From Candidatus Hydrogenedens sp. (GTDB lineage Bacteria > Hydrogenedentota > Hydrogenedentia > Hydrogenedentales > JAEUWI01): a stretch of 64,000 nt of DNA. The stretch lies in the NCBI GenBank assembly GCA_016125095.1, contig WGMK01000010.1:331336-395335 (forward strand). The letters run 5' to 3'. A program made the translations under genes and the position numbers. Of this stretch, positions 144 through 57,644 are shown in pieces (the stretch's first letter is position 1; each line of letters starts with the position of its first letter). The notes below the pieces were generated by a model. That model was not told the origin of the DNA. It searched no databases and saw only the letters and a list, made by a program, of their open reading frames with translations.

Positions 144-1577
144 ATGCAATCGAGCAAGGGTCAGCGCGTGCTCCGTTTCCTGATGCCGCTGGTATTCCTG
201 GGCTTCGCTGGTTACTCGTATGCCGGCGTCGAGGGAGCCGGATTCGAGGAAGGATCCATTGAGGGTGATGGGGCCAATGAGGGGGCGCTTGAAGGTTCCG
301 GCACGGACGAGGGCCAAAGCGGTGCTGAGGGGATTTCGGATGGCGAGGACGGCGAGACAGAGACGTCCTCGCGGTTGCGGATGCTTTGGATACGGCTCAC
401 AAACGATGTGGCCTACGGCGGTCGCAGCGGTCATGTGGCGCTGGTATTTAGGAACCGGCTCTGGATCATGGGCGGCGCCCGTTCACATACCCAGCAGACC
501 AGCAATGACGTGTGGTACACGCGGGACGGCTGGCACTGGGTGGAGGCGACGCCTGCGGCGGCGTGGGCGCCACGGCTGAGTCACTGCGGGTTCGTCTACG
601 ACGACGCCATGTGGATAGTCGGTGGCAACAGCAATACCGGACGCCGCAATGACATCTGGCGTTCCCGCAACGGTGTGGATTGGGAAGAGGTGGTGAACAC
701 GACGCCGTTTGCGGCCCGGAACCGATCGACGACGCTGGTATACGATCACGCGATCTGGATTCTTGGCGGCAGAACCAACACCACCCGCAGTGCGGAAGTG
801 CTGCAGTCTACGAACGGGACCGTGTGGGACACGGTCTTGAATCCTGCAGATTGGGGCGGTCGTTCGAGTGCCGACAGTCTGGTGTTCAAGCGGGGCATGT
901 GGCTGGTCTCCGGGGCGACCTCCGCGCAATTGCGCACGAGCGACGTCTGGCGATCGAGCGATGGCTTGCAGTGGAACCAGGTGAGGGCCGATGCCGGGTT
1001 TGTCGGCCGGTTCGACCAGGCGAACGTGTCCTGGAAAGATCGGCTCTGGGTGCTTGGCGGCGACGCCGTAGGCGGGTTGGCCCACGATACCTGGTATTCG
1101 GAAGACGGCACGGACTGGCAGCAGCCTATACCCGCGGATGCCCCGTGGACGCCGCGTTCCGATATGCCGGCCGTTGTCTGGCATGGCGCCCTGTGGGTGC
1201 TCGGCGGCTGGGAGGGACGCGTCGGGGGCATCAATCAGTACGCGAGCGATGTCTGGATCGGCTTTACCACCGAGTTCCACACGGCCGATCTGGATCACGA
1301 TCACCATCTCTCGCTGTGGGAACTGCTGCGTATTATCCAGTTCTACAATGCCAACGGCATCGAGTGCGCCGAGGACCCGGATGGAACGGAGGACGGATTC
1401 GTCGCACGGCCGTTTTCCGGGCGTGGCTGCGGCGAGCACGACGCGGATTTCGGGCCCCAGAACTGGGAACTCAGCCTGAGCGAGCTGCTGCGGCTGATTC
1501 AGCTGTACACGGTGGGCGAGTACTACTACGACCCCGCGGGCGGCACGGAAGACGGGTTCGCTCCGGGCGCGAAATAA
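144..1577 (+). CDS. Secreted/membrane-anchored Kelch-type beta-propeller repeat protein with a Glu/Gly-rich acidic linker and a C-terminal tandem dockerin-like (EF-hand-like) repeat pair
   Basis: ATG at 144 preceded by GGGGAGAA. N-terminal hydrophobic segment, then a low-complexity EG-rich stretch (EGAGFEEGSIEGDGANEGALEGSG...), then six or more repeats of the W..GG / IW..GG Kelch-like pattern. C-terminus has DLDHDHHLSLWELLRIIQFYN and NWELSLSELLRLIQLY, homologous to the C-terminus of the 52818..57644 protein. Confidence 0.6.
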   Translation: MQSSKGQRVLRFLMPLVFLGFAGYSYAGVEGAGFEEGSIEGDGANEGALEGSGTDEGQSGAEGISDGEDGETETSSRLRMLWIRLTNDVAYGGRSGHVALVFRNRLWIMGGARSHTQQTSNDVWYTRDGWHWVEATPAAAWAPRLSHCGFVYDDAMWIVGGNSNTGRRNDIWRSRNGVDWEEVVNTTPFAARNRSTTLVYDHAIWILGGRTNTTRSAEVLQSTNGTVWDTVLNPADWGGRSSADSLVFKRGMWLVSGATSAQLRTSDVWRSSDGLQWNQVRADAGFVGRFDQANVSWKDRLWVLGGDAVGGLAHDTWYSEDGTDWQQPIPADAPWTPRSDMPAVVWHGALWVLGGWEGRVGGINQYASDVWIGFTTEFHTADLDHDHHLSLWELLRIIQFYNANGIECAEDPDGTEDGFVARPFSGRGCGEHDADFGPQNWELSLSELLRLIQLYTVGEYYYDPAGGTEDGFAPGAK

Positions 1578-2285: not shown

Positions 2286-2589
2286 CAACACGGGCTTTGC
2301 TCCGTACCGCAAGGAATGCGTTAGCTTAGTGTTAGCTGCAGCACGGAAGCAAGACCTGCCGGAAATCGGGCGATTGTAACTTCGCATTCATACGGCGCAA
2401 GGGCTTGCGCAGGTGCCCGATTTTTGTCACTTTCACCCGCCAACAGCGAACGATTTTCGCCATTTGTCAGGTGCCGGATCTCGGGGTAGAATCCCCTCGT
2501 GCTTGCCGGGGCAGACGGCAAGCAGCGGGCCGCGGGCGACGTTCTCCCAAGCGGCTTCCGGCTACGAGGGCTGTACCGGGGATTGGTCT

Positions 2590-5500
2590 ATGAAGCATTC
2601 CATGCGCGCGGAACTGCGACGGGATATCATGCCCGATTCACGTGCGCGCAGCTTCGTAGTCCTCGGCGTGATGCTCTTCCTTTTCGCGTCGTGTGTCGGC
2701 CAGGCGCAGGATTTTCCGAATGTCGCCCGCACGGCCGGCGAACTGCTGGCCGGCCCCATCGCGCCGGAGCAGGGCCGCACCGCGATTGTGGGCTGGCACG
2801 GCGGCCGCATCGTCTCGGTGCCCGAAGCGCCGGGCAGCCAGCCGGGCGCCGATTTGAATATGCGCGTGGTCAGCCTCGAGAACCTCGACACCACGGGCCC
2901 GGAGGTTACCGTCGTTCCGGCGCACGCCTCCGGCTTTCATGCGCATGGCTATTTTCAGTCGGGGCCCTACATGTACGTGGGGCCGCATTGCCTGGGCGAT
3001 GCGCTCGATACCTGCAACGGCACCTATCCGCACGATGTCTGGGGCAATGCCTTCCGCATCGGTGGCGCAGGCACGGCCATTGGCGATTCGCAGCTCCGCC
3101 GCGCCGACCTCGATGGCGAGACCGGGCTGCTGCTGGGCAGCGTGCAGCGCGCGGGCGCGCAATCGCCCTGGGGGCTCAACGATTTCTGGACCTACAACAC
3201 CATCGGCGGCGACATGTTTCTGGCCGTGCGCCGCAATAACGACTGGGTGTACGACTGGGCCAACGGCGGAGAACCCATCGGCCCGGCGATCAAGGCGCAG
3301 TGGGACCATCTCGGCCTGACCGGCGTCACCGGCTTTCCCTTCATCATGGGCAACATTCTCCTGGTGGCATCCGACCAGGCGGGCAGCGGCGTGGCGAGCT
3401 ACGACATCTCCGACCTGTCGAATCCCATCCTGCTCGACGTACTGAAGGAGGGGAATCCCGGCGGCTATTGGCCCGAGATTTACAGCCACTACATCTTCTT
3501 TCCGCGGCGCGATGGCGAGGGCGGCGTGGGCAGCCAAGCCGGCTACATGGTCGTCGATTTCGAGGATCCCACCGACCTGAAGATCGTCGCGAACCGCAAC
3601 CTGCAAGGGTCGAATCAATACGTCACCTTTCAGGACGAGTTCGCATTCATGAATCGCTACAAGATCGACATGCGGAACTTCGATGTGGCGCTCGAACTGG
3701 CGACGGTGCCGGGCGTAATTGATGCCAGCCAGTTTTCGCTGCCGGTGGGGAATCTCGTGGTGACGGGCGGCTACGGCAGCGATGGTCCCGGACTCGCGGT
3801 GTGGGCGCATCAGGATGCTCCCGATACGCGCGGGCCGTATGTGGCCTATCACGTGCCCGTGCCGGACCAGGCGAACTATCCGCTCGAATGCCCGATCACG
3901 CTCTCCATTCCGGAATCGCTGCGGACGGAAACGATCGTGGATGGCACATCGCTCATTCTGCGGCCGGTGGGGGGCGCCGCAGTGCCCACGTGGCATGCCT
4001 TCAGTCAGGGCAAGCTGTTGACCGTGACGCCGCATGAGCCGCTGCTGCCGGACACCACCTACGAGTTTCTGCTGACCAGTGTCATCGAGGATGCTGCGGG
4101 CAATCCTTTCGAGGCCTATACCTTCCGCTTCTCGACCGGTAGCGCATTGAGCGGCGGCAACCAGCCGCCGGTGGTGGATATGGTGACCTTCAATCCGGCA
4201 GTGCCCGCACCGGGCGTGTCGGTTGCGGTATCGTGGAGCGGCCATGATCCCGATACCGACCCCATCGAGTTCCGCGTTGACTATGGCGATGGCACGGCGC
4301 TGTCGGCGTGGGGTGCGGCGACTACCGGGAACCACGTCTATGCGGAGGCCGGTCACTACCAGTTCACCGTGCAGATTCGCGACGACCAGGGTTCCGTGTC
4401 GGCCCTTTCGCGCAAGGTAACGGTGATCGATGCACCGACCGAAACGAACGCCACGGCCAGCGGGCCGCTCGCGCTGAACGGCACGGCAGGGCGGCTGTAC
4501 GTTGCGAACCCCGACAACCAGAGCGTGACCTGCATCGACACCAGCACGAACGCCGTGTTGTGGGAAGCGCCCGCCGGGAAACACCCCATGAGTGTCGGCA
4601 TCGCGGCGGATGGCACGGTGTGGTTGGCCTGCCGCGACTCGGACAACCTCGTGCTGCTGAACCCTGCTACCGGCGCCGTCGAAGCGACCATAGCGCTCGA
4701 TTACGGCGCGGCGCCGGTCGCCATTGCGCCCACGCCGGACGGAACCGCGATGCTGGTGAGCCTCGACGGAGAAGGTGCAATCGCGCGCTTCAACACAGCG
4801 ACCCACGCGCAGACCGGGATGCTGGCCGTCGGGCCGTCGCCGCGTGCGATCGCCATCACGCACGACGGCTCCCGCGCGCTGGTCACCCGGTTCATATCAG
4901 GGCCGCATTCGGGATCGGTCTACGACGTCGCGCTTGCCGGCAGCATGAGCCTGACCCGCACGATCATCCTCGCGCGCGATCACTCAGTCGACAGCTCGGC
5001 GTCGGGGCGCGGTGTGCCGAATTACCTGGCCGGCATCCGCATTTCGCCCGATGGCGCGCACGCGTGGGTGGTGGGCAAGAAGGACAACACGACGCGCGGA
5101 AACTTCTTCAGTCCGGACATGACGCCCGGGCAGGACAGCACCGTGCGCGCCGTGCTGATGTTGATCGACCTCGGCACCAACGCCGAGGACCTGGCGCTCC
5201 GCCTCGACATCGACAACAGCGAATCGCCCAGCGCCGTCGCCTTCAGTCCGCTCGGGGACTACGCCCTGATTTCACTCCAGGGCAACAACCAGATCGGCAT
5301 CATCGACGTGCTCGACCTGCTCCGCGACGACACGCCCGGCACGCTGCAAGGGCGGTGGTCGACGGGCCTGGCGCCGCAAGGCGTGCTGGTCGATCCGGCG
5401 TCGCTGGCGGTCTATTCGAAGGACTTCATGGGCCGCAGCGTGACCCGGCTCGACGCTTCGGGCTTCTTCAACGCGGGCGCACTCAATGTGCCGTCGGCCG

Positions 5501-7440
5501 CCATCGCTACGGTAGGCAGCGAGCGCCTGCACCCGCAGGTGCTGCAGGGCAAGCGGATTTTCTACAACGCCTCCGACACGCGCATGAGCGCCGAGGGCTA
5601 CATCAGCTGCGCTACGTGCCACATCGACGGCAGCCACGACGGCCGCACCTGGGACTTCACCAACCGCGGCGAGGGCTTCCGCAATACGACCGATCTGCGC
5701 GGCCGAGCGGGCATGGGCCACGGCAATGTGCACTGGACCGCGAACTTCGATGAGATACAGGACTTTGAGAACGACATCCGCGGGTTCTTTGGCGGCTCGG
5801 GATTCCTGACCGACGGACAGTTCGCTTCCACGAGCAGTTCGCTGGGCTCGCCCAAGTCCGGGCTGAACGCCGACCTCGACGCGCTCGCGGCGTATGTGAC
5901 TTCACTGGGTACGGCCTCGCTGCCGCGCAATCCCGAGCGTGATCCGTTGGGAGCCTTGAGCGAGGCGGCGGTGCGGGGCGCGGCGGTATTCACCGCCCAG
6001 GGCTGCGCTGTTTGCCACATCCCCGAGGACGGCTACACCGATCGCCAGATGCACGACGTCGGCACGCTGCGCGCCTCGTCGGGACAGCGGCTGGGCGGTC
6101 CGTTAACCGCGATCGATACGCCGACGCTGCTGGGCCTGCAGGCCTCGGCCCCCTACTTCCACAACGGCACCGCCGCGACGATCGAGGAAGTGTTCACGAC
6201 GACCGGCGGGCGGCTGGTGCAAGCCGAGGACGCCGTGCTGGGCGGCGGCGCGTATGCGGAAGACATTCCGTGGTTCGCCATGAAAGAGTGGCATGGCGGG
6301 GAATTTGTGACCGTCGAAGCGGGGCAGTCGATCACCTTTGACGATGTGGTGTCCACGCAGGCCGGGGCGGGCTATGCCGAACTGCGCTACAGCGCGCGGT
6401 ACAACCAGCTGACGCTCGGCGTGTCAGTCAATGGCGGGGCCGTGCAGAACTACCTCGTCGCCATGACGCCGAACGAGCCGAGCTATGCGCCGACCGAATG
6501 GCGCGAACTCCGGGTGCCGATCACCTATCAGGCGGGGACGAATACCATCGTGCTCAGCAAGATATCCGGCGGGCAGCTGGCCTTCGACGATGTGATGTTC
6601 TCGACTCCCGACGACGCCGTGAATGCGGCCGCGCATTTCCGTGTGCTTGCGCCGGGCGATCTGGCCGACCTGACCGCGTACGTCGGTTCGTTGGATGGCT
6701 CCGACGCGCCCGGGGGACAGGTGGAAGTGCGGCGCGGCGTCGTTATCGCGCCGGGCAGCACCGACCATGCCACGGTGGCCGTCGGCGGAGCGGACACGCT
6801 GACCTATACCGTTCACAACACCGGCGCGGGTCCGCTCGATCTGGGCGCGTTCGCCCTCGTATCTGATCCCGCCGGCGCATTGGTCGTATCGCAACAGCCC
6901 GCGCCGCAGGTGGCACCCGGCGCATCCACCACGCTGGTCGTGACGGTGCAGCTACCGGGGACCAGCGCGCAGGCCGATTTCCATGGCTGGACCAGCGACC
7001 CGGGAGCCGAGTCGCTGTCGTGGTCGGTCACCGCCTTGGAAGAGGGCGCGTGCCTTGGGGAATGCCTGACGGTCGATGCCGTGGGTGCGACGCAGTACCT
7101 CCGCGAAGTGGGGGATTCGGTGACCTTCCGTGTGCAGGCGGCGGGTGATGCGCCGCTGCTCTATCAGTGGTACCGCAATCTCTCCGGCAAGGCCCTGCTC
7201 GAACTCGATGCGACCGATGCGACACTCACCTTGACCGACCTGCAGATCGCCGCCAGCGGCGAGTATTTCTGCGTGGTCGAGGATGCCAACGAGATGGTGC
7301 AGGGCCCGTCGTTCACGCTGACGGTCGTGGCGGAATTGCCGGCGGCAGGGAGCGCGGGCTTGTTGGTTATGGCGGCTTTGCTGGGCCTTGCCGGTACGAT
7401 TCTGATCCGGAGTAATCGCGTCCGTCGATGCGGGCTCTAG
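2590..7440 (+). CDS. Giant secreted multidomain protein: beta-propeller region, Ig-like/PKD domains, YVTN beta-propeller repeats, di-haem cytochrome c peroxidase (CCP/MauG-type) domain with two CxxCH, Ig I-set domain, C-terminal PEP-CTERM-like anchor
   Basis: ORF frame 2413..7440; ATG at 2590 (or 2629) precedes signal peptide MPDSRARSFVVLGVMLFLFASCVGQAQ. PKD-like segment (VDYGDGT...GNHVYAEAGHYQFTVQIRDDQG). YVTN repeats (LYVANPDNQSVTCIDTSTNAV...). CCP signature CATCHIDGSH...GCAVCHIPEDGY...HNGTAATIEEVF. Ends ...ELPAAGSAGLLVMAALLGLAGTILIRSNRVRRCGL. Confidence 0.7.
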   Translation: MKHSMRAELRRDIMPDSRARSFVVLGVMLFLFASCVGQAQDFPNVARTAGELLAGPIAPEQGRTAIVGWHGGRIVSVPEAPGSQPGADLNMRVVSLENLDTTGPEVTVVPAHASGFHAHGYFQSGPYMYVGPHCLGDALDTCNGTYPHDVWGNAFRIGGAGTAIGDSQLRRADLDGETGLLLGSVQRAGAQSPWGLNDFWTYNTIGGDMFLAVRRNNDWVYDWANGGEPIGPAIKAQWDHLGLTGVTGFPFIMGNILLVASDQAGSGVASYDISDLSNPILLDVLKEGNPGGYWPEIYSHYIFFPRRDGEGGVGSQAGYMVVDFEDPTDLKIVANRNLQGSNQYVTFQDEFAFMNRYKIDMRNFDVALELATVPGVIDASQFSLPVGNLVVTGGYGSDGPGLAVWAHQDAPDTRGPYVAYHVPVPDQANYPLECPITLSIPESLRTETIVDGTSLILRPVGGAAVPTWHAFSQGKLLTVTPHEPLLPDTTYEFLLTSVIEDAAGNPFEAYTFRFSTGSALSGGNQPPVVDMVTFNPAVPAPGVSVAVSWSGHDPDTDPIEFRVDYGDGTALSAWGAATTGNHVYAEAGHYQFTVQIRDDQGSVSALSRKVTVIDAPTETNATASGPLALNGTAGRLYVANPDNQSVTCIDTSTNAVLWEAPAGKHPMSVGIAADGTVWLACRDSDNLVLLNPATGAVEATIALDYGAAPVAIAPTPDGTAMLVSLDGEGAIARFNTATHAQTGMLAVGPSPRAIAITHDGSRALVTRFISGPHSGSVYDVALAGSMSLTRTIILARDHSVDSSASGRGVPNYLAGIRISPDGAHAWVVGKKDNTTRGNFFSPDMTPGQDSTVRAVLMLIDLGTNAEDLALRLDIDNSESPSAVAFSPLGDYALISLQGNNQIGIIDVLDLLRDDTPGTLQGRWSTGLAPQGVLVDPASLAVYSKDFMGRSVTRLDASGFFNAGALNVPSAAIATVGSERLHPQVLQGKRIFYNASDTRMSAEGYISCATCHIDGSHDGRTWDFTNRGEGFRNTTDLRGRAGMGHGNVHWTANFDEIQDFENDIRGFFGGSGFLTDGQFASTSSSLGSPKSGLNADLDALAAYVTSLGTASLPRNPERDPLGALSEAAVRGAAVFTAQGCAVCHIPEDGYTDRQMHDVGTLRASSGQRLGGPLTAIDTPTLLGLQASAPYFHNGTAATIEEVFTTTGGRLVQAEDAVLGGGAYAEDIPWFAMKEWHGGEFVTVEAGQSITFDDVVSTQAGAGYAELRYSARYNQLTLGVSVNGGAVQNYLVAMTPNEPSYAPTEWRELRVPITYQAGTNTIVLSKISGGQLAFDDVMFSTPDDAVNAAAHFRVLAPGDLADLTAYVGSLDGSDAPGGQVEVRRGVVIAPGSTDHATVAVGGADTLTYTVHNTGAGPLDLGAFALVSDPAGALVVSQQPAPQVAPGASTTLVVTVQLPGTSAQADFHGWTSDPGAESLSWSVTALEEGACLGECLTVDAVGATQYLREVGDSVTFRVQAAGDAPLLYQWYRNLSGKALLELDATDATLTLTDLQIAASGEYFCVVEDANEMVQGPSFTLTVVAELPAAGSAGLLVMAALLGLAGTILIRSNRVRRCGL

Positions 7441-16831: not shown

Positions 16832-18196
16832 TTAGTACGCCTCCATGCCGGATTCCAGGGCGCGCTCCAGACTGTCCACCGCATGCGCGGTTTCGAGCAC
16901 CCCGCCCGCGTCGCGGGCGCACCCCTTGGGCAGTATACATTGTTTGAAGCCGAATTTCGCGGCCTCGGCCACCCGCTGCCGGGCCATGGACACGGAGCGT
17001 ATTTCGCCGGAAAGCCCGACCTCGCCGAAGGCGACCAGGTCAGAAAAGGCGGGGGATTCGCGGAAGCTCGACACCAGGGCCAGCGCGATGGCGAGGTCTG
17101 CGGCGGGTTCGTCCAGCCGCACGCCGCCGGCCACATTGACGAAGACATCGCGGTCGGAGAAGTGCAGCCCCGCGCGCTTTTCCAGCACGGCCAGCAACAG
17201 CGATACGCGGTTCTGGTTCACGCCGGTCACGGTGCGCCGGGGCGAGCCCGCGTGCGATTCACCCACTAGCGCCTGCACTTCCACCAGCAGGGGGCGGGTG
17301 CCCTCGATGCTGGGGAACACCACCGAGCCGCTGATGCCCTCGGGCCGCTCGTGCAGGAACAGGGCGCTGGGGTTGGGTACTTCGTGCAGGCCCGAGCCGC
17401 GCATTTCAAACACGCCGATCTCGTTGGTCGATCCGAAGCGGTTCTTCACCGCGCGGAGGATGCGGAGCGATTGCCGGCCCTCGCCCTCGAAATACAGCAC
17501 GGCATCGACCAGGTGCTCGAGCAGGCGCGGCCCGGCGATGGCCCCGTCCTTCGTGACATGGCCCACCAGCATGATGCCGACGTTCTGGCCCTTGGCCAGC
17601 CGCAGCAGCTCATTGGCGCATTCGCGCACCTGGCTGATGCTGCCCGGCACCGCGGGCACCTGGGGACTGTACACCGCCTGAATCGAATCGACCACGACGA
17701 GTCTGTAGTCGCCTTCGCGGATATGGCGGGCCACCGATTCGATATTCGTCTCGGTGAGCATCATGAGGTGGTCGTGCATGGCGCCAAGGCGCTCGGCGCG
17801 CAGCCGGGCCTGGCTGAAGGATTCTTCGCCGGAAACATAGAGCACCGGGCCATGCTGCGCGGCCAGCCGCTGGGAGACTTGCAGCATCATGGTGGACTTG
17901 CCGATGCCGGGGTCGCCGCCGATGAGGGTGAGCGAGCCGGGCACCAGGCCGCCCCCGAGCACTCGGTCGAATTCGTGGATGCTGGTGCGGATGCGCTCGG
18001 GCGGAGCGAGCGTGCCATCGGTAATCGGCACGGGCTTCGCATTGGACACAATGGCGGGCCGTTCGTGGGCGCCCGACTCCGCTTGCACGTCCTCTTCCAG
18101 CGTGTTCCACGATCCGCACGCGCCGCACTTGCCGCTCCACTTGGGGGCGATAGCGCCGCAATCGCTGCAGATGTATACCGTGGTGAGCTTGGCCAT
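16832..18196 (-). CDS. radA: DNA repair protein RadA/Sms
   Basis: ATG at 18196 (MAKLTTVYICSDCGAIAPKWSGKCGACGSW, zinc finger). Walker A GDPGIGKST. RadA-specific KNRFG motif (AVKNRFGSTNE). Lon-like C-terminal domain. Confidence 0.85.
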   Translation of the reverse strand: MAKLTTVYICSDCGAIAPKWSGKCGACGSWNTLEEDVQAESGAHERPAIVSNAKPVPITDGTLAPPERIRTSIHEFDRVLGGGLVPGSLTLIGGDPGIGKSTMMLQVSQRLAAQHGPVLYVSGEESFSQARLRAERLGAMHDHLMMLTETNIESVARHIREGDYRLVVVDSIQAVYSPQVPAVPGSISQVRECANELLRLAKGQNVGIMLVGHVTKDGAIAGPRLLEHLVDAVLYFEGEGRQSLRILRAVKNRFGSTNEIGVFEMRGSGLHEVPNPSALFLHERPEGISGSVVFPSIEGTRPLLVEVQALVGESHAGSPRRTVTGVNQNRVSLLLAVLEKRAGLHFSDRDVFVNVAGGVRLDEPAADLAIALALVSSFRESPAFSDLVAFGEVGLSGEIRSVSMARQRVAEAAKFGFKQCILPKGCARDAGGVLETAHAVDSLERALESGMEAY

Positions 18197-20620: not shown

Positions 20621-23600
20621 TCAGTGGTGACCGGCCTTGCCTTCCCAGTGCTGGGGAATCAGCCAGGGCTCATTGTTGAGCGATTGGAGGAAGGTGAGGA
20701 GGTCGATGAGTTCCTCGTCGGTGAAGGCGGCGTCGAGGCCTTCGGGCATGATGGATACTGCGGCGGGCTGCATGTTGCGCACGTCGCTGCGGGGGATGTG
20801 GCGCACCTCGTTCACGCCGGGCGCGATGGTGATGGTGTCGGCGGTCTGCTGCAGGATGATGCCGACGTAGGTCTCGAATTCGAGGTCGATCTGATAGGGC
20901 ACGAAATCGGGCACCATGCTGGCGCTGGGAAACAGGACCGACTCGATAAGGTCGTGGGCGGACCGCACGAGGCCGATGGTCGTCAGGTCGGGCCCGAGAT
21001 GGCCGCCGTCTTCGCCCACGGCGTGGCATTGCGAACACTGCGCCTTCTCGCTGAAGAAGAGTTCGCGGCCGCGTCCGACGTCGCCCGTGCCGAGGCGCGG
21101 GGTGAGCGCCAGCAGCCGCTGCACGCTGCCCTCGGCGCGCTGCGCCATCTGGCTTTCCAGCGCCGCCGCGCGTTGCCGGGTCTCTTCCGGGTAGCCCTTC
21201 AGGGCGTTTTCGATCTGCGTCATCGACAACAGGTCCAGCACATTCGTGTGTTCCTGCAGGGCCGCCACGAGGGCATCGCCCGCTGCGGCATCCGAGCCGC
21301 GCACGACACAGGCCAGCACGGTGGAGAGCGCCAGCGGGTCGGCCTGCGGCAGTTGCGTTTCAATCAGGGCTAGCAGGGTGGGCGTGTCGAGCGCAGCGGC
21401 GGTGAGCACGCTCGAGGCCGCCCGTCGCACCAGCGCGTCTCCGCCGGGACTCAATCGGTCGGCGGCAAACGTGATGCGTGCGTCGGACAGCGCGCCGTCT
21501 TCCTGTGCAATTACGGCCAAAGCCGCAAGGCGCAGCATGTCGCTTTCCGTCTTGTCGCCGGCGATGGCGTTCAGGTCCTTGCCAAACCCGTCGAAGCCGC
21601 GCGCCTGGATGACGCGGATGGCCCCGGCGCGGATGTCGGCGTCGGCGCTGTGCAGTCCGTCTTCGAGCGCTTCGCGCCATGCGGCGGAAAGACTGCCGCC
21701 CGCAGCCGATTCGATGCAGGTCAGCATGAGTTGGCGGACGCTGGCCACGGCCTTCTCGTCCGAAAGCAGCGCCGCGATTCGCGTTTCTCCGGCGTCGGTG
21801 GCGGCGTAGGCCAGCAGAATTTCCTGCAACGCCGCGCGTTCGGCATCGTCGGCGCTGCCGCTGCGGAGGCGGGCCTCGACGAAATCGAGTACGGCGTCGG
21901 CCCAATCCGAATGGCGCGAGGCCACCCAGAGTGCATCGGCGCGGAGACCCGGATCGCCGCTCTCGAGGAAGGGCAGTACCTGTTCCGCCGCGAGCTGCTG
22001 GTCGCCCAGCTGATCCAGCGCGATGAGCGCGGCCTTGCGGGTGGGCCAGGGGGCGTCGGAATTCAGCGCGGCGCGAAGCGATTCCTGCTCGCCCAGTTCA
22101 ATCAGCGCGTAGATAATCGCGTGTTCCTCGAAGCGGTCCGCCGACTTAGCGCTCGCTTCGAGCAGCGCGGGCACCCCGGCGGCATCGCCAATCTGACCGA
22201 GCGCCGTGGCCGCCGCCATGCGCTCCGCCGGAGACTCCGCGCGTAACTGTGACGACAACCCGGAGACTGCGGCCTCGCCGCCCATATCGCCCAGCAGCCG
22301 TGCCGCCAGCGACCGAACTTCCGCATCGGTATCGTGCAGCGCCTCGACGAAAGGTGCGGCATCGCCCTCCGGATTCAGGCGAAAAAGCCCCGACAGCGCC
22401 AGCAATTTCGCGGGCGTGCTCTGCGACTTCGCGATCACGCGGCGGAATGGTTCCGCTGATTCCGGACCGCGACGCAGCAGGACCTCCAGCGCTCGCGTCC
22501 GCACACGGAAACGCGGGTCTTCCAGCAGCGCGGCCAGTTGCGCGTTATCCACCTGCTCGAAATCTATCCGGCCGCCCCAGGGGTCGATTGCTGCCGGGGC
22601 GTCTTTCTTGCGGATACGGTAGATGCTGCCGCGCACATCGGGCTTGGCCACTCGGCTGATGGGACAGGCATCGACATACCACCCGCCCGTGTCGCTCACG
22701 AGGATGCTGCCGTCGGCGTCTTCGAGCACATCCGTCGGATAGAAGTCCGGACTCGACGAGATCAGGAAGTCCTCGTCCTCCGTGCGATACGTCGCGCCAT
22801 CGGCCACGACCTGGTGTCGCTGCACGCGGTGCGGGTTGAACTGCGCGCTGAACAGGCTGCCGGTGTAGTCCTCGCCGAAGCTCGACGCCTGATATTGCAG
22901 CAGGCCCGCCGGGGCGATGCGGGCGTACTTCGACATCACCGGCATCAGGCTGCCCGTGCGGATGAATTCAGCGGTGGATTCGTGCGGCTTGGGATACACG
23001 CCGCCCCAGACCCAGTGCATCAACGCGTCGCGCTGCCCCAGTTTGGGGTCGGTGAAATAGGTCATCGTGCCGACCAGCTGGCCGCCCGGCATGAACACCA
23101 GCTCGACCGGATTGTCGAAGCCGCCGCCCGCGAAGCGCTCGAGCTGCGTGCCGTCGGGCTGACACCGCCAGATGCGCGACGCCAGGCCCTCGAGCGTCTC
23201 GCCTTCCTTGGTCGTAATCTTGTAGCCGTGGCGTCCATGGGTCAGATACAGGCGGCCATCAGGCCCCAGGAACGGGCCGTGCAGGCTGGCCGTATTGAAA
23301 ACGTTCCAGCCGGTCAGCAGCACTTCGCGCTCGTCGGCTACGCCGTCGTGGTCCGTGTCGCGGAAGCGCACGAAGTCCGGCGGGCTGGCCACGTAGAGGG
23401 CGTCCTGATGCCAGAGTACGCCCATGGGCAGGCTCAGTTCCTCGGCGAACACCGTCTTGCGGTCGTATAAGCCGTCGCCATTGTCGTCGGTCAGCCGCAG
23501 GATTAGGCACTTCGGGTCCGCCGCCATTTCCTGGCCGGAGAGATCGAGTCCGGTCGATTCGGCAATAAAGAGATTACCCGTCTCGTCGAACTCCATGAAC

Positions 23601-23740
23601 ATCGGATACGACGAGAGCTCGGGGCCGGCCGCCCGCTCGACCACGAAGCCTTCGGGCACGGAAATCGTATCGAGCGTATCGGCGCCCGCGGCCGAAGCCG
23701 CCAGTGAAAGTAGCGCGCCTATCGTGCAGCAAAGTTTCAT
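20621..23740 (-). CDS. PVC-type multidomain protein: N-terminal putative membrane-bound (glucose/sorbosone) dehydrogenase-like beta-propeller, central HEAT repeats, C-terminal haem-binding CxxCH domain
   Basis: Signal peptide MKLCCTIGALLSLAASAAGA. Long HEAT-like repeat stretch (ALEVLLRRGPESAEPF...AALIALDQLGDQQ...). C-terminal CSQCHAVGEDGGHLGPDLTTIG cytochrome c motif. Architecture characteristic of Planctomycetes/Verrucomicrobia. Confidence 0.65.
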   Translation of the reverse strand: MKLCCTIGALLSLAASAAGADTLDTISVPEGFVVERAAGPELSSYPMFMEFDETGNLFIAESTGLDLSGQEMAADPKCLILRLTDDNGDGLYDRKTVFAEELSLPMGVLWHQDALYVASPPDFVRFRDTDHDGVADEREVLLTGWNVFNTASLHGPFLGPDGRLYLTHGRHGYKITTKEGETLEGLASRIWRCQPDGTQLERFAGGGFDNPVELVFMPGGQLVGTMTYFTDPKLGQRDALMHWVWGGVYPKPHESTAEFIRTGSLMPVMSKYARIAPAGLLQYQASSFGEDYTGSLFSAQFNPHRVQRHQVVADGATYRTEDEDFLISSSPDFYPTDVLEDADGSILVSDTGGWYVDACPISRVAKPDVRGSIYRIRKKDAPAAIDPWGGRIDFEQVDNAQLAALLEDPRFRVRTRALEVLLRRGPESAEPFRRVIAKSQSTPAKLLALSGLFRLNPEGDAAPFVEALHDTDAEVRSLAARLLGDMGGEAAVSGLSSQLRAESPAERMAAATALGQIGDAAGVPALLEASAKSADRFEEHAIIYALIELGEQESLRAALNSDAPWPTRKAALIALDQLGDQQLAAEQVLPFLESGDPGLRADALWVASRHSDWADAVLDFVEARLRSGSADDAERAALQEILLAYAATDAGETRIAALLSDEKAVASVRQLMLTCIESAAGGSLSAAWREALEDGLHSADADIRAGAIRVIQARGFDGFGKDLNAIAGDKTESDMLRLAALAVIAQEDGALSDARITFAADRLSPGGDALVRRAASSVLTAAALDTPTLLALIETQLPQADPLALSTVLACVVRGSDAAAGDALVAALQEHTNVLDLLSMTQIENALKGYPEETRQRAAALESQMAQRAEGSVQRLLALTPRLGTGDVGRGRELFFSEKAQCSQCHAVGEDGGHLGPDLTTIGLVRSAHDLIESVLFPSASMVPDFVPYQIDLEFETYVGIILQQTADTITIAPGVNEVRHIPRSDVRNMQPAAVSIMPEGLDAAFTDEELIDLLTFLQSLNNEPWLIPQHWEGKAGHH

Positions 23741-52817: not shown

Positions 52818-55800
52818 TCAGAAGCAGAAGCCGTCTTCGCTTTCGCCGCACCACCGAATGGTTCCACGATTGAAGAACTGCACCACGCGGAGCAGTTCGG
52901 ACAATTGGATGACCCAATCCTGCACCTGAAAGTCTGCGGCGTGGGGGGCGCAGCCGTCCTTGGCGCCTGCGCCCGGGGCGTAGGCATCCTCCGAGCCGCT
53001 GCTGCAATGCAGTCCGCCCGCGTTGTAGAACTGGATCAACCGCAGCAATTCGGCCAGGTCGATCTTGCCATTGCCATCGAGGTCGGCCGAATGCCGGTGC
53101 TGCTGCGGTTCGCCCTCGGCAGCGCTTTCGCCCTCAAGGGTGGTTTCGCCTTCTTCTCCTTCGACGCTACCTTCACCTTCCGCCGGGTGACCTTCGCCCT
53201 CGAGCGTGCCGCCGCCGCAGGGGCAGCCGCCGCCGTTGGCCGTGGCGTCCGCATTCAGCGCCCACGGCACGAACTGGGGCAGGGGACTCGCCGCCATCAG
53301 GCTGGCGTTGTACTCGCCGAGATTGCACGCCCCATCCAGATCGGCGTCACCATTCCATGCCAGAAACCGTTCAGACGTCCGGTCGAAATCGTTCAGGTCG
53401 AGGTCCGGGAGCGAGAACGGTAGCGAGTCCAGCGCATCGACAATGATAGCGATGGTGGCCTCTTCGCCCAGCGTCATGAGGCCCGCGATCGCATTCACGA
53501 CCGTGGCGCGCGGAAACAGGGTGAACAGCAGCGGCTGCTGGGTGTTTACTGCCGTCGCGAATTCATTGGCCAACGGCAGGTTGGTCTCGTAGGCCGAACG
53601 CACGCAGCAGTAGGCATGATAGTCCGGGTCGGCCAGCACGGCGTCCACCAGCCGCGCGTGCAGCGTATCCGGGATGCCGTTCTCGTCGAGGTCGGCCGTG
53701 TCGGGGTCCTCGCCCACCAGCGGATTCGCATAGATGGTCCGCATCGCCGCCTCGAAACCGGCGTCGATGCCCTCGGCATACGCGCAATCGCGGTCGCATC
53801 CTTCGATTTCGCATGAAGGTTCGCCCTCGCCGCCGCCTTCCGTCGCGCCCTCGCCGTCCACGGCTCCCTCGGGCTTGCCCTCGCCGTCGACCGCGCCTTC
53901 AACAGCAGCCTCGCCTTCGCCCTCGGCGTCACCCGGATCGATGCAAAGGCCCGGCCCCGGCTGAAGCAGCGCATCGGTTGCCGCCAGCAGATAGCAGCAC
54001 CGGCTGCGCAGCCGGAAGCAGGAATACTCGTCGGCGTTGCTCACGCCGTCGTTGTCGGCGTCGCCATTGAAGGCGAGTAACGCCGGCAGCCGCGTGTAGT
54101 TGCTGGGATTTACCGCCGTTACCCCGAGGTCGATATCCGTAACCGCCGCCGCCTCCGTGGTCGCCGTCACCGGTATCGCCACGGAGTCGTCATCGCCCAG
54201 CAACATGTACGCCGCCAGCACTTCGTGCAGCTGCGGCGATATGGCGTTCACCAGGCCAGTCGGCCCGCCCAGGTCGGCGTACATCCGGGCCTTGTTGTTG
54301 TTCCAGCCTTCGCACACCTGCTGCGATGCACCAAGGCCGCCCTGCGTGAGGAAGTAATTAATCAGCGCGAACTCGTCGCTGTCGAGCAGACCGTTGGGGA
54401 AGATTTGCTCGTCCTCGATGCTGAATCCGCCGTTGATGTCCGACGAACTGGGGTCGAAGGAATAGCCGCCCAACTGAGACCGGAACTGTTCGAGCGCCCG
54501 ATCGACCGCCGCCATCTTGCCGTCGAAATCCACGGGACCGCAGGGACCGCTGCCATCCGGGCCGCACTGGTCGAAACAGCGATCCACATTGCCGCCCAGC
54601 GGCGTCATGGCCGCCGCCACATAGTCGGCGCGCGTGCCGCCCTTGCCCGCCACATAGTTACGCTCGAAGAGGTTGGTCATCTCATCGCCGTCGGGGTCGC
54701 CTCCGCTGGCCAGTTGCTGCCGCCCGCCGGGCGCGGAATCGCGGTAGGGGTAGTAATAGCCGGAAAGCTGCAGCAGCTTGGAGAAGTATTCGGCGTGCGC
54801 CTGGCTCACGGTCATCAGCGCAGCGAGCACATGCTGGAATTCCTGGATAAGTTTGAATTGTGCGTCGCCCTGCAGCCGCGACAGGTTGCCGGTGTACTTC
54901 TTTCGCGCGCCCAGGTAATGTGCGAAGTCGGGCGCGCAGGTCGCGCCGGCCAGGAGTGCGGCCTCCCAGCAGTCCGCGATGCCGTTGGCGTCCAAGTCTT
55001 CCGTCGCCCAGCCGTCGCTGCCGGGAATCGCTGCATAGAGCGCGCTGCCTTCCGCATCAAGGAGGGCCAGAAAGCCCGAGCAGTCCGCCGGCTCTTCGCC
55101 ATTGTTGTTCTCTTCGCCGTCGCAGCCGCCACCATTGGCGAGCACGTCCGGGTTCATCGCGTTGGCAACGAACGAGACGTAGCCGCCGAGGTCGCGCGGC
55201 ACCGCATTGAACTCGCTCAGGTTGCACACGCCGTCGTCGTCGGCATCGCCCAGCGCCCCGACATACGGTGCTGCGCTGGTGTCGAACAGCGTCGCATCGA
55301 CTTCGATCTGTTTGTCTTCATCCAGCAGGGTGTTCAACTCGCTGAAGATGGCGAGCATGGCCGCCACGCCGGCCGGTTCGCCCTGGGTCACCAGCCCCAC
55401 CAGCGCGCGCTGCACCTTGCCCACGTCGATAACGAGGCCGATGCCTTGCTCGACGGGCAGCCCGTAGTATTGCTGCGAGAGCTTGTCCCAGAGTTCGTCG
55501 AGGTAGCCCTTCACCACCACCTCGTTGTTCAGGTACGCGCTACCCACCTCGAGGTAATGCGGATTGTCGGCGCACCAGAGGACTGCGTCGATCAGCAGCG
55601 CCTGCGCGTAGTCGACGATGCCGTTCTCATCCAGGTCCGTCGCGTAGGAATCTTCGCACAGCAGGCAGATCGGATCGGTGAGGGGGATGGTGATCGTCTT
55701 CGTATAGAGGTACTCGATAGAGCGCGCGAACTCGACGCCCCGCAATATACCCTCGGGGCAGGCGGCCGTCAGCACCGCGTCCACGTAGGCGTCGCGGTTG

Positions 55801-57644
55801 CCGAAGTTGCTGAGGACCGCGTCGTACTCGGCTTTGTTGTTGTAGGAGTCGCCATCGATGTCGGCGGCGGGGGAGAAGGGCTGGATAAACTGACCCAGCA
55901 AGTCGATCGTAAAGGGCTGATAGGGCCGCGTCAGGTAGGCGCTCAGCTTGTTCTTGATCATGCTGTTCACGCTGGGATTCACCAGCAGCAGCGCCGCGAG
56001 CACGTTTTCCGAACTGCGCAATTGCGTGGAATACGCGGGTTCGGTCTTCAGCAGGTTGAGCGTTGCCTCGTATTGGCCGCGCAACTGCGGATACAGGGGA
56101 TGGCTTGGGCGGCACAGCACCTCGGCCAGCGGCGCGATTTCCCAGCTGTCGATCATGCCGTTCCCGTCGAAGTCCTTCAGCTCCCAGAAATCGCCGAACA
56201 GCAGATAGAGCGGCTGGCCCTGCCCGTCGATGCCGGGCAAAAGGGGACAGTCGCTGTCGAGATCGCCGCCGCCGCCTTCGCCCGTGCCGATGGTGTACCA
56301 AGCGCCTTGGATAAAGTCGTCCGCGCCCAGCCCGCCCAAGGGGTTCCACACGCCATCGTACACCGAGTCGTTGTCGATGAAGTCGATGCTCAGGCTGCCA
56401 TCGCCGGTGGACACGCTCGTCGTCACCACCCAGTCGCGGCCGCTGCCGCTCACGCTTAGAATCGCCGCGCCGGCCGCTGTGCCCTTTTCGTCGATTGCGA
56501 AGTCGCCCGCGTCCACCCCGGTCACGCCCTCGGTGAAGCGGACGTTGAAGGAGACCGTGCTATCGACCGGCGGGTCGGCGCTGCCGAGCGTGATCGATTC
56601 GCAGCGCGGCGGCACCGGGTCGCTGAACCAGGGGATGTACGCCTGATAGACCGCGTTCTCCATCAGGTAGATGTAGCCCTGCGGGCTCAGGTGAATGGGG
56701 TCCAGTTCGTTGCTGCCGGCCATCGCCTGGCGCGGACTCCACAGCCCGCGGTCGCCGCCGGGAAAATTGGCATAGCCGCCGCCCGGGCCGTCGGGCAGCC
56801 ACCCGGGATTCGCACCGACGTTCAGGCTCGGAATCCCAAAGCGCGCCATCATCGTGCCGAAGTTGTGCACGTAGCGCACCCGGTCCATTCCAAGCGCCAA
56901 GTCCTTCTTCAACCGCTCGAGTTCCACGAAGACATCGTTCACCTGTCGCTGATATCCTGCGATCTGCGCGGCTGTCGTGTAGTCGAACTGAAACAGGTCC
57001 GGGTTGAAGATCGGCACATGGATGCCGAAGGCCACGAGCGCGATTGCGGTCGGGTTTTCGATGCTCTTCACATAGGTGACGATGTCGAAGGGATTGAAGG
57101 GATTCGTCCAGGTATCGTAGGTGTAGCCTTCGGCGATGTTCAGGTAGTCGTAGCCGTTGATGACGCAACGGATGTTCGGCCGTACGCTCAAGCAGTGCTG
57201 GATGACATTGCGGATATGGTCGCGCGTGGCGGCGAGCAGGGCATTCGTATCGCCCTCGCTCATACCGATGGTCCAGTTTATGTTGACGTCGTTGCCGCCG
57301 AGGCTGATATGCACCACGTCGATCGTGGGGTAGGCATTCAGCATCGACGTGATTTCGTCCTTGAGCCCCGGCGTGTCCCAGCCCTCGGCCGTGGGGCTGT
57401 GCAGCGCGATATCGCCGACTTCCGTGAACTCGCCGCCCACCGCCTGCTTCACGTCGTTGCGCCCGAGCACCGAACGCAGCGCGGGCGGGTCCTGCTCGGC
57501 CCAGGGGAAATACGTCCAGCTATCGCCGACGTAGAGAATACGGGGTATCGGAGCCGCGTTCCCCGTTGCAGCGGGCAGCATTGCGCTGAGCACACAGGCC
57601 ACCACCGCCACGAAGTCACGGATTCGGTTACAGGAAGACTGCAT
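52818..57644 (-). CDS. Giant (~1608 aa) secreted protein: N-terminal SGNH/GDSL hydrolase-like domain, three or more ~150-aa internal repeat modules bracketed by DxDxDG calcium-loop-like motifs, EG-rich acidic linkers, C-terminal tandem dockerin-like repeat pair
   Basis: ATG at 57644 (MQSSCNRIRDFVAVVACVLSAMLPAATGNA signal peptide). ILYVGDSWT (GDS-W block I). Repeated modules starting DLDENGIVDY / DLDANGIADC / DLDENGIPDT and ending NGDADxDGxxNxxEY. Linkers GEGEAAVEGAVDGEGKPEG.. and EGEGHPAEGEGSVEGEEGETTLEGE. C-terminus DLDGNGKIDLAELLRLIQFYN ... LSELLRVVQFFNRG, homologous to the C-terminus of the 144..1577 protein. Confidence 0.7.
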   Translation of the reverse strand: MQSSCNRIRDFVAVVACVLSAMLPAATGNAAPIPRILYVGDSWTYFPWAEQDPPALRSVLGRNDVKQAVGGEFTEVGDIALHSPTAEGWDTPGLKDEITSMLNAYPTIDVVHISLGGNDVNINWTIGMSEGDTNALLAATRDHIRNVIQHCLSVRPNIRCVINGYDYLNIAEGYTYDTWTNPFNPFDIVTYVKSIENPTAIALVAFGIHVPIFNPDLFQFDYTTAAQIAGYQRQVNDVFVELERLKKDLALGMDRVRYVHNFGTMMARFGIPSLNVGANPGWLPDGPGGGYANFPGGDRGLWSPRQAMAGSNELDPIHLSPQGYIYLMENAVYQAYIPWFSDPVPPRCESITLGSADPPVDSTVSFNVRFTEGVTGVDAGDFAIDEKGTAAGAAILSVSGSGRDWVVTTSVSTGDGSLSIDFIDNDSVYDGVWNPLGGLGADDFIQGAWYTIGTGEGGGGDLDSDCPLLPGIDGQGQPLYLLFGDFWELKDFDGNGMIDSWEIAPLAEVLCRPSHPLYPQLRGQYEATLNLLKTEPAYSTQLRSSENVLAALLLVNPSVNSMIKNKLSAYLTRPYQPFTIDLLGQFIQPFSPAADIDGDSYNNKAEYDAVLSNFGNRDAYVDAVLTAACPEGILRGVEFARSIEYLYTKTITIPLTDPICLLCEDSYATDLDENGIVDYAQALLIDAVLWCADNPHYLEVGSAYLNNEVVVKGYLDELWDKLSQQYYGLPVEQGIGLVIDVGKVQRALVGLVTQGEPAGVAAMLAIFSELNTLLDEDKQIEVDATLFDTSAAPYVGALGDADDDGVCNLSEFNAVPRDLGGYVSFVANAMNPDVLANGGGCDGEENNNGEEPADCSGFLALLDAEGSALYAAIPGSDGWATEDLDANGIADCWEAALLAGATCAPDFAHYLGARKKYTGNLSRLQGDAQFKLIQEFQHVLAALMTVSQAHAEYFSKLLQLSGYYYPYRDSAPGGRQQLASGGDPDGDEMTNLFERNYVAGKGGTRADYVAAAMTPLGGNVDRCFDQCGPDGSGPCGPVDFDGKMAAVDRALEQFRSQLGGYSFDPSSSDINGGFSIEDEQIFPNGLLDSDEFALINYFLTQGGLGASQQVCEGWNNNKARMYADLGGPTGLVNAISPQLHEVLAAYMLLGDDDSVAIPVTATTEAAAVTDIDLGVTAVNPSNYTRLPALLAFNGDADNDGVSNADEYSCFRLRSRCCYLLAATDALLQPGPGLCIDPGDAEGEGEAAVEGAVDGEGKPEGAVDGEGATEGGGEGEPSCEIEGCDRDCAYAEGIDAGFEAAMRTIYANPLVGEDPDTADLDENGIPDTLHARLVDAVLADPDYHAYCCVRSAYETNLPLANEFATAVNTQQPLLFTLFPRATVVNAIAGLMTLGEEATIAIIVDALDSLPFSLPDLDLNDFDRTSERFLAWNGDADLDGACNLGEYNASLMAASPLPQFVPWALNADATANGGGCPCGGGTLEGEGHPAEGEGSVEGEEGETTLEGESAAEGEPQQHRHSADLDGNGKIDLAELLRLIQFYNAGGLHCSSGSEDAYAPGAGAKDGCAPHAADFQVQDWVIQLSELLRVVQFFNRGTIRWCGESEDGFCF

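Follow-up and report, generated by a model that had tools for sequence, protein, structure and literature searches.

Two secreted proteins of Candidatus Hydrogenedens share a duplicated C-terminal module with calcium-type loops, from an unannotated domain family expanded in Hydrogenedentota

Introduction

Dockerins of types I and II (PF00404) are small duplicated domains of about 65 residues (60-70) in which a calcium-type loop followed by a helix, the F-hand, occurs twice, and they are carried by many unrelated secreted proteins of one organism, usually at the C-terminus behind a linker and occasionally N-terminally or internally. Their loops have 12 residues, with Asp or Asn at positions 1, 3, 5 and 9 and Asp at position 12. 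Here we analyze a module that resembles dockerins in this architecture and placement and that terminates two secreted proteins of Candidatus Hydrogenedens sp., encoded in a stretch of 64,000 nucleotides (contig WGMK01000010.1, positions 331,336 to 395,335; hereafter, the window). The original prediction, made from the window itself, was that a Kelch-repeat protein (carrier A) and a larger protein labeled GDSL (carrier B) end in homologous tandem domains of a dockerin-like or surface-anchoring kind. We find that both C-termini belong to an extracytoplasmic domain family that has no annotation and has expanded enormously in Hydrogenedentota, a phylum that is uncultivated and common in anaerobic digesters and sediments.

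Other described systems also bear on the comparison. Peer et al., writing in FEMS Microbiol Lett in 2009, are said to have reported non-cellulosomal dockerin-like modules in all three domains of life, found with dockerin profiles on diverse secreted proteins of organisms without cellulosomes, their partners mostly unknown. Among sorting signals, the C-terminal domain (CTD) of the type IX secretion system (T9SS) is a conserved tail of about 80-100 residues on dozens of Sec-exported proteins with unrelated passengers, and it is a beta-sandwich, strictly C-terminal and cleaved, while signals of the PEP-CTERM/exosortase and MYXO-CTERM type are short tripartite motifs with a transmembrane helix and a basic tail that undergo sortase-like processing.

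Results

A duplicated module shared by two secreted proteins

Compared over their full lengths by BLASTP, the two carriers give one strong match, which is confined to their C-termini (44% identity over 95 columns, E = 7e-20) and spans residues 379-473 of carrier A and residues 1563-1652 of the longest open reading frame (ORF) of carrier B, equivalent to residues 1518-1607 counted from the Met at 57644. The homology in the original prediction is thereby borne out, and the boundaries that it gave are right to within a few codons: copy A of the module occupies 1275..1574 on the forward strand and copy B 52821..53099 on the reverse strand. Chance or low-complexity similarity of the tails was rejected, given this E-value and the position of the match outside the linkers rich in glutamate and glycine (EG linkers). 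Repeat 2 of copy A aligns with repeat 1 of copy B (BLASTP, E = 3e-6), so each tail is an internal duplication, as had been proposed. When all six frames of the 64-kb window were translated and scanned with a 43-column hidden Markov model (HMM) of the single repeat, two units were found in each carrier and none elsewhere; HMMs of the whole tails, or of the four half-repeats, likewise recover these two places alone.

On the forward strand, repeat 1 of copy A lies at 1278..1412, with the 12-residue EF-type loop DLDHDHHLSLWE at 1287..1322, and repeat 2 at 1437..1571, with the 13-residue loop DFGPQNWELSLSE at 1446..1484. Copy B, on the reverse strand, has its repeat 1 at 52968..53093, with the canonical EF loop DLDGNGKIDLAE at 53049..53084, and its repeat 2 at 52821..52943, with the loop DFQVQDWVIQLSE at 52896..52934. 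Across the family, whose modules are 93-100 residues long (about 95), the consensus of the first half is H-x-A-D-Q-[ND]-x-D-x-x-I-x-L-S-E-L-L-R-V-I-Q-F-Y-N-S-G-G-x-H-C-...-T-E-D-G-Y-x-P-G-x-G and that of the second half is ...-C-x-P-H-x-S-D-Y-N-P-Q-D-W-x-I-x-L-S-E-L-L-R-L-I-Q-F-Y-N-S-G-G-Y-x-x-C-P-...-T-E-D-G-F-C-P-G.

Loop 1 is a canonical 12-residue EF loop, D-x-[DN]-x-[DN]-x-x-I-x-L-S-E, in 280 of 321 members, both window copies included, with the ligand pattern D1, D/N3, D/N5, I8, S/N/D9 and E12; with the helix that follows it in the models below, this agrees with the earlier description of the first repeat as a Ca2+ loop and a helix. The second loop had been called degenerate, and here the description did not hold. 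It is a 13-residue loop, D-[YF]-N-P-Q-D-W-x-I-x-L-S-E, kept in 282 of the 321 members, which retains the first Asp and the last Glu and, given a one-residue insertion, Asn or Asp at the equivalents of ligands 3 and 5; it is a conserved variant and not a decayed loop. The loops predict that the module binds Ca2+, at least in loop 1.

Four cysteine columns are occupied in 86-99% of members, and among 340 unique domains the cysteine pattern is CCCC in 289, CC.. in 42 and another in nine. The joint loss of the last two cysteines is what a disulfide pair would show, and the pattern points to two disulfides in the module. Copy B is of the CCCC type, with pairs at 52950..53006 and 52824..52850 (reverse strand; C1547-C1565 and C1599-C1607 of the 1608-residue protein), and copy A is of the CC.. 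type, with the pair C408/C429 (1365..1430, forward strand) and the second pair absent. The module is strongly acidic throughout the family, with a mean net charge of -11.7 and an isoelectric point (pI) of 4.2.

Predicted fold and relation to dockerins and EF-hands

AlphaFold2 models of the two copies agree with each other, with a predicted local distance difference test score (pLDDT) of 94.4 for copy A and 93.5 for copy B and a predicted template modeling score (pTM) of 0.84. Each repeat runs from a loop of about 14 residues through a 12-13-residue helix to a short beta-hairpin, with no helix ahead of the loop; the model of copy A has helices at 15-26 and 69-81 and two hairpins. As modeled, each repeat is an F-hand, the dockerin motif, and not a helix-loop-helix EF-hand, and the predicted fold is not a coiled coil.

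Foldseek searches of the PDB gave only three matches for copy A, to calmodulin, a dockerin of R. flavefaciens and a ribosomal protein, all at E 8-9. For copy B, the first 14 matches were all dockerin chains, each individually non-significant (E 0.7-3.2), from C. thermocellum (types I and II), B. cellulosolvens, R. flavefaciens and C. acetobutylicum, aligned over 70-80 columns at a root-mean-square deviation of 3.7-4.4 Å and, for several of them, with a target-normalized template modeling score of 0.45-0.57. Very few of the chains in the PDB are dockerins, and EF-hands of calmodulin type greatly outnumber them; 14 dockerins at the head of the copy B list are therefore unlikely to reflect chance. 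We read this as suggesting that the dockerin fold is the nearest known neighbor of the module core, which is not proof of homology.

At the level of sequence, PF00404 matches neither window copy even at E <= 10 and matches five of 64 family members (best E 1.4e-3), and EF-hand_6 matches 47 of the 64, weakly. EF-hand models of Pfam reach the window copies at E 1e-4 to 1e-3 (copy B), with 14-22 bits against cut-offs of 25-30. Aligned by hhalign with the CelS dockerin (a query identical to PDB 2mte_A/1daq_A), the family profile gives a probability of 5.8%, and with CelS plus CelD 6.5%, with only 16-17 loop residues aligned in either case. A search of PDB sequences with the family profile returned nothing below E 0.1, and weak EF-hand proteins only.

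The module fails the sequence definition of PF00404 and differs from dockerins in length, loop chemistry, hairpins and disulfides, and we therefore keep it apart from that family and file it as a dockerin-like docking module in the EF-hand clan. At about 95 residues it is some 30 residues longer than a dockerin; each repeat adds a beta-hairpin (TEDG[FY]) and a predicted disulfide; loop 1 ends in Glu-12 instead of Asp-12, and loop 2 has 13 residues. Its host is a diderm candidate phylum and not a Firmicute, and its passengers are mostly adhesin-like proteins and not carbohydrate-active enzymes. Unlike the dockerin-like modules attributed to Peer et al., the family escapes PF00404 and has elaborations of its own. 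With the canonical EF-hand pair of calmodulin type (EF-hand_1/5/6/7) it shares a textbook 12-residue loop 1, but it has no entering helix in the models, is extracytoplasmic, carries predicted disulfides and an insertion in loop 2, and in the window copies scores below threshold.

Family size and distribution

Neither Pfam-A (2025 copy) nor NCBIfam 20 holds a model for the tail, their matches being limited to sub-threshold EF-hand hits to repeat 1, and its carriers are therefore annotated as 'hypothetical' or by their passenger only. A word-indexed search returned 223 relatives, many of them short Hydrogenedentes fragments named 'hypothetical protein, partial' and two of them from Kiritimatiellia, and an exhaustive profile search of 1.84 billion cluster representatives returned 2955 proteins at E <= 1e-3, 2395 at E <= 1e-10 and 1201 at E <= 1e-30. 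On contigs, with one genome per species, more than 560 module stretches were confirmed among the matches listed. The family thus reaches far beyond the two copies from which the original prediction started. A full-text literature search with Hydrogenedentota terms and motif strings such as ELLRVIQFYN found no mention of the module.

Carrier loci were sampled as the best 79 of the more than 560 stretches, which come from only 14 metagenome-assembled genomes (MAGs). Within these 79 loci, one MAG (JAKQEQ01) has 30 unique copies, a second 20 and a third 15. Paralogous modules inside one MAG are 70-79% identical despite unrelated passengers, and identity between MAGs is 67%. Metagenome contigs yielded no close relatives of the window copies (best identity 59%). 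The module is also present in a differently built protein (P0151) of Candidatus Buchananbacteria, of the Candidate Phyla Radiation (CPR), and is therefore not confined to the diderm Hydrogenedentota.

The module is often called as a separate gene of about 90-120 residues, or lies at a contig end. In one locus (L081:5751-10282, contig CAYYRW010000005.1) an ORF of 1427 residues ends within the start of a called gene of 93 residues that holds the module, with spurious antisense genes called across it, which points to a frameshift or a gene-calling artefact. The same may hold for some of the proteins named as 'partial' fragments, in which case the family is possibly under-counted in annotations.

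Carrier architecture and the anchor position

The module lies within 15 residues of the C-terminus in 127 of 140 representatives, and the genome loci show the same placement in almost every one of their 108 carrier ORFs; there, two or three carrier genes often follow one another. The 40 residues upstream of it contain 17.7% Gly and 14.7% Glu, in (EGxx)n linkers like that of carrier B, so the EG-rich linkers first noticed in both window proteins are a family-wide trait. Signal-peptide-like N-termini were found in 73 of 99 long carriers by a simple test for a hydrophobic run. The passengers are highly varied, with 70 full-length carriers matching 88 Pfam families that include Flg_new_2, beta-helix, LRR, Kelch, CHRD, PKD, cadherin, PASTA, P-domain and BACON; no cohesin is among the Pfam domains of the carriers. 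This breadth agrees with the earlier proposal of a shared, modular, targeting-type Ca-loop domain on unrelated secreted passengers.

Other placements occur. In two carriers the module directly follows the signal peptide, ahead of the passenger (P0167, P0062), and one protein has four copies (P0121). A Kelch propeller homologous to that of carrier A is preceded by the module in P0486 and followed by it, at the C-terminus, in P0388. Four further proteins (P0128, P0131, P0133 and P0151) are of low complexity and Lys-rich, and a divergent form of the module occurs in them two or three times.

The C-terminal position that the module usually takes is occupied by other signals elsewhere. Carriers include NCBIfam choice-of-anchor J and D domains, and their passengers come from families that NCBIfam defines as dependent on PEP-CTERM (ScyF-like), on T9SS (M6-like) or on myxosortase (M36). 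Similarly, the carrier A propeller has homologues in other phyla whose C-terminus is a T9SS type A CTD (PF18962, in candidate division WOR-3), a FlgD_ig-like domain (PF13860), a PEP-CTERM signal (PF07589) or a transmembrane anchor. In Hydrogenedentota, then, the module fills the slot that is used elsewhere for a surface-sorting signal. It is also found N-terminally and in tandem, which argues for a binding domain, as in dockerins, and not for a signal read by a translocon from the C-terminus, as in the T9SS CTD.

Three known classes of signal were considered and set aside. The module resembles the T9SS CTD in length and in its spread over unrelated Sec-exported proteins, but it matches neither PF18962 nor TIGR04183, has a helix-plus-hairpin fold in place of a beta-sandwich, and occurs in N-terminal, internal and tandem copies. 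It shares with PEP-CTERM and MYXO-CTERM signals the anchor slot on passengers of those families; unlike signals of the PEP-CTERM or LPXTG type, it is folded, soluble and strongly acidic, with no hydrophobic stretch and no NCBIfam match. A type I secretion (repeats-in-toxin, RTX) signal was rejected because both carriers, and 73 of the 99 long members, have signal-peptide-like N-termini, and no RTX repeats or matches were found.

The two carriers and neighboring genes

Carrier A (144..1577, forward strand; ORF and Pfam) is a secreted Kelch beta-propeller protein of 477 residues. Its signal peptide (MQSSKGQRVLRFLMPLVFLGFAGYSYA, 144..224, read from the sequence) is followed directly by an acidic EG-rich linker (225..362), which in this carrier is N-terminal and not ahead of the module; the propeller extends from about 372 to 1274 (PF24681, E = 1.9e-20) and leads into copy A and the stop codon at 1575..1577.

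Carrier B (52818..57644, reverse strand) is a secreted protein of 1608 residues, delimited by ORF and sequence inspection; its longest ORF reaches 57779, and a signal-peptide-like N-terminus after the Met at 57644 gives the shorter length. The signal peptide (57555..57644) is followed, from 57554, by an SGNH/GDSL-like domain. The GDSL label given to this protein earlier stands on two observations, a sub-threshold PF13472 match (E = 3.7e-4; 21.5 bits, where the cut-off is 32.9) and an ILYVGDSW motif read directly from the sequence. Beyond the weak PF13472 match, no Pfam domain was found across some 1100 residues. Residues ~461-1448 (53301..56264, reverse strand) form about five divergent modules of about 200 residues, most of which start with an EF-like loop and a helix (DFDGNGMIDSWE, DLDENGIVDYAQ, DLDANGIADCWE, DLDENGIPDTLH) and each of which ends in a TSP3-like motif, GDADxDGxxNxxEY. 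No Pfam model matches them at E <= 0.1, and a self-BLAST reveals no repeats at E <= 1e-3; they look like a second uncharacterised repeat architecture with predicted Ca-binding loops. One EG linker lies within this part of the protein (53817..53930, reverse strand), and another, TLEGEGHPAEGEGSVEGEEGETTLEGESAAEGEP, of the kind typical of the family, directly upstream of copy B (53106..53207, reverse strand). Both carriers begin with MQSS (144..155 and 57633..57644), ahead of their signal peptides, probably a coincidence.

Beside carrier A, at 2413..7440 (forward strand), is a gene for a secreted protein of 1675 residues with Big_5, PKD, a YVTN/PQQ-like propeller, a di-haem MauG/CCP-like domain, CBM6-like and Ig domains and a weak choice-of-anchor D match. 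It ends in a hydrophobic helix and a basic tail (…LLVMAALLGLAGTILIRSNRVRRCGL), a different style of anchor in the same genome, with no significant match to a PEP-CTERM model. Unrelated to the module is a secreted protein of 1039 residues at 20621..23740 (reverse strand) with DUF7133, HEAT repeats and a C-terminal cytochrome c domain, an architecture that we take to be typical of 'membrane-bound dehydrogenase' proteins of the Planctomycetes-Verrucomicrobia-Chlamydiae (PVC) group. The RadA encoded at 16832..18196 (reverse strand) places the window in Hydrogenedentota: it shares 67-73% identity with RadA from MAGs named Candidatus Hydrogenedentes, and all of its named top matches come from this phylum.

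In the wider sample of 161 carrier loci described below, a secreted family of about 450-560 residues with an N-terminal 'YQG.L.D..G.PV…' domain adjoins carrier genes in ten loci (for example L018:6031-7713, L037:6547-11720 with three in tandem, L124:1266-2900 and L143:2342-3979). One member has a Phage Tail Collar domain (PF07484). Considered as a partner of the module, this tail-collar-fibre-like family does not look like a receptor.

Discussion

The reading that we favor, at about even odds (a probability of roughly 0.5), is that the module is a Ca2+-stabilized, disulfide-stapled, dockerin-like docking module by which proteins exported through Sec are kept at the cell surface, bound to a common receptor, where the Ca2+ binding and the disulfides are predicted and the surface location and the receptor are putative. 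Since they have N-terminal signal peptides, the carriers would be exported by Sec, and the module would fold and oxidize outside the cytoplasm, with Ca2+ in at least loop 1. In each half the loop would be followed by an amphipathic helix (ELLRvIQFYN) and then by a hairpin ending in TEDG[FY]; one disulfide would join the first hairpin region to the linker between the repeats, a second would staple the C-terminal hairpin, and the two halves would come together as a single compact and highly acidic domain. The EG linker, flexible and acidic, would hold the module away from the passenger, which would be docked to a putative common receptor of the cell envelope (a protein, or a polymer of the envelope); in this way the surface would retain and display many unrelated enzymes and adhesins. 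The module would then be another 'choice of anchor', like the dockerin, the T9SS CTD and PEP-CTERM. Its promiscuous attachment, flexible acidic linker, high copy number and conservation among paralogues are in keeping with a generic localization module more than with a catalytic or substrate-specific one.

Several results weigh against this reading. Every structural match to dockerins is individually non-significant (E 0.7-9), and the sequence profiles (PF00404, hhalign) show no family link to them. The window copies are divergent for the family, at about 44-46% identity to each other, and the counts of dozens of copies per MAG come from other Hydrogenedentota MAGs, the 64-kb window itself having two. 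No cohesin or other candidate receptor was found among the window ORFs scanned with Pfam, in keeping with what had been said earlier of the window. Similarly, when the partner search was widened from the first 79 loci to 161 carrier loci (1.2 Mb), clustering of their non-carrier ORFs gave no recurrent partner-like neighbor, and the recurrent neighbors were generic (two-component regulators, GFO/IDH/MocA oxidoreductases and acyl-CoA dehydrogenases). Some proteins consist of little beyond a signal peptide or transmembrane segment and two or three modules (P0123, P0126, P0129); others have their copies between an N-terminal signal or transmembrane segment and a C-terminal transmembrane anchor (P0128, P0131, P0133), and the Buchananbacteria protein (P0151) has an N-terminal hydrophobic segment and two copies. 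The module-only proteins and the CPR carriers fit a self-association or structural role at least as well as docking to a receptor.

Such a role, in which the module would be homotypic or Ca2+-bridging and would cross-link carriers, or acidic polymers of the envelope or matrix, into a coat or biofilm-like matrix, is rather unlikely, and it is the alternative that survives best. It would account for the module-only proteins, for the carrier with four copies, for the CPR stalk-like proteins with repeated modules and for the lack of a separate receptor in the window and the 161 loci, and an extremely acidic surface (net charge about -12) suits Ca2+ bridging. The same acidity, however, would make the domains repel each other unless Ca2+ bridged them, and dockerin-like folds normally bind heterologous partners.

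A C-terminal secretion or sorting signal analogous to the T9SS CTD, read by an outer-membrane translocon or a sortase and perhaps cleaved off in exchange for a covalent anchor, is quite unlikely in our judgment. Such a signal would explain why, on the Sec-dependent carriers of this diderm phylum, about 90% of copies come last in the protein, after a linker, why T9SS CTD, PEP-CTERM or MYXO-CTERM signals are found on the same passenger families in other lineages, and why the paralogues are very highly conserved. It should not, however, tolerate the roughly 10% of copies that are N-terminal, internal or multiple in one protein, and the CPR proteins that have the module already have membrane anchors. 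The predicted fold, alpha plus hairpin, is not the beta-sandwich matched by PF18962 or TIGR04183, and no translocon genes recur beside carriers in the 161 loci.

Distinctly unlikely is a true cohesin-dockerin system, with a divergent dockerin that binds a cohesin-like beta-sandwich, borne by a scaffold or anchor protein encoded elsewhere in the genome, and builds cellulosome-like surface complexes. The duplicated F-hand architecture speaks for it, as do the 14 dockerins that head the list for copy B, the dockerin among the three matches of copy A, the weak Dockerin_1 matches to five of 64 members and the dozens of carriers per genome with their diverse passengers; the non-cellulosomal dockerin-like modules attributed to Peer et al. 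would offer a precedent. Against this, the structural E-values are non-significant, hhalign gives about 6% against real type I dockerins, and Glu-12 in loop 1, the 13-residue loop 2 and the extra hairpin and disulfide in each repeat depart from the dockerin pattern, and there is no cohesin in the window or among the Pfam domains of carriers, a search that covered these and not a whole genome. Of the two halves of the original prediction, targeting or anchoring is accordingly the better supported, and the cohesin-dockerin half is best kept as an analogy.

Very unlikely, finally, is a lectin-like, carbohydrate-binding or other substrate-binding module, or a mere Ca2+-dependent stabilizing cap with no targeting role: small Ca2+-dependent binding modules are common on secreted enzymes and some passengers are hydrolases or proteases, but the passengers are mostly non-enzymatic and very diverse (LRR, Kelch, cadherin, PKD, Flg_new_2, PASTA), the 70-79% identity of paralogues implies one common constrained interaction, and the long flexible linkers between module and passenger argue against a cap.

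Returning to the docking of exported proteins on a common receptor, we propose, more tentatively, a broader form of it: the module may be the address tag of an unrecognised, phylum-wide surface-display system of the Hydrogenedentota, with outposts in Kiritimatiellia and CPR, which would attach dozens of secreted enzymes and adhesins in each cell to a dedicated receptor or scaffold as an independent counterpart of the cellulosome, the T9SS CTD and PEP-CTERM. This is possible and not yet probable.

Conclusion

The module marks a very large secreted repertoire of a candidate phylum, amounting to thousands of proteins in public data. As a compact and confidently modeled docking domain with a predicted dependence on Ca2+ and disulfides, it could serve protein engineering, as dockerins do. 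Defined as a family, it offers a direct way to catalogue the surface proteins of this candidate phylum, and the display of Hydrogenedentota surface proteins becomes a testable search for the receptor or the sorting machinery of the module.

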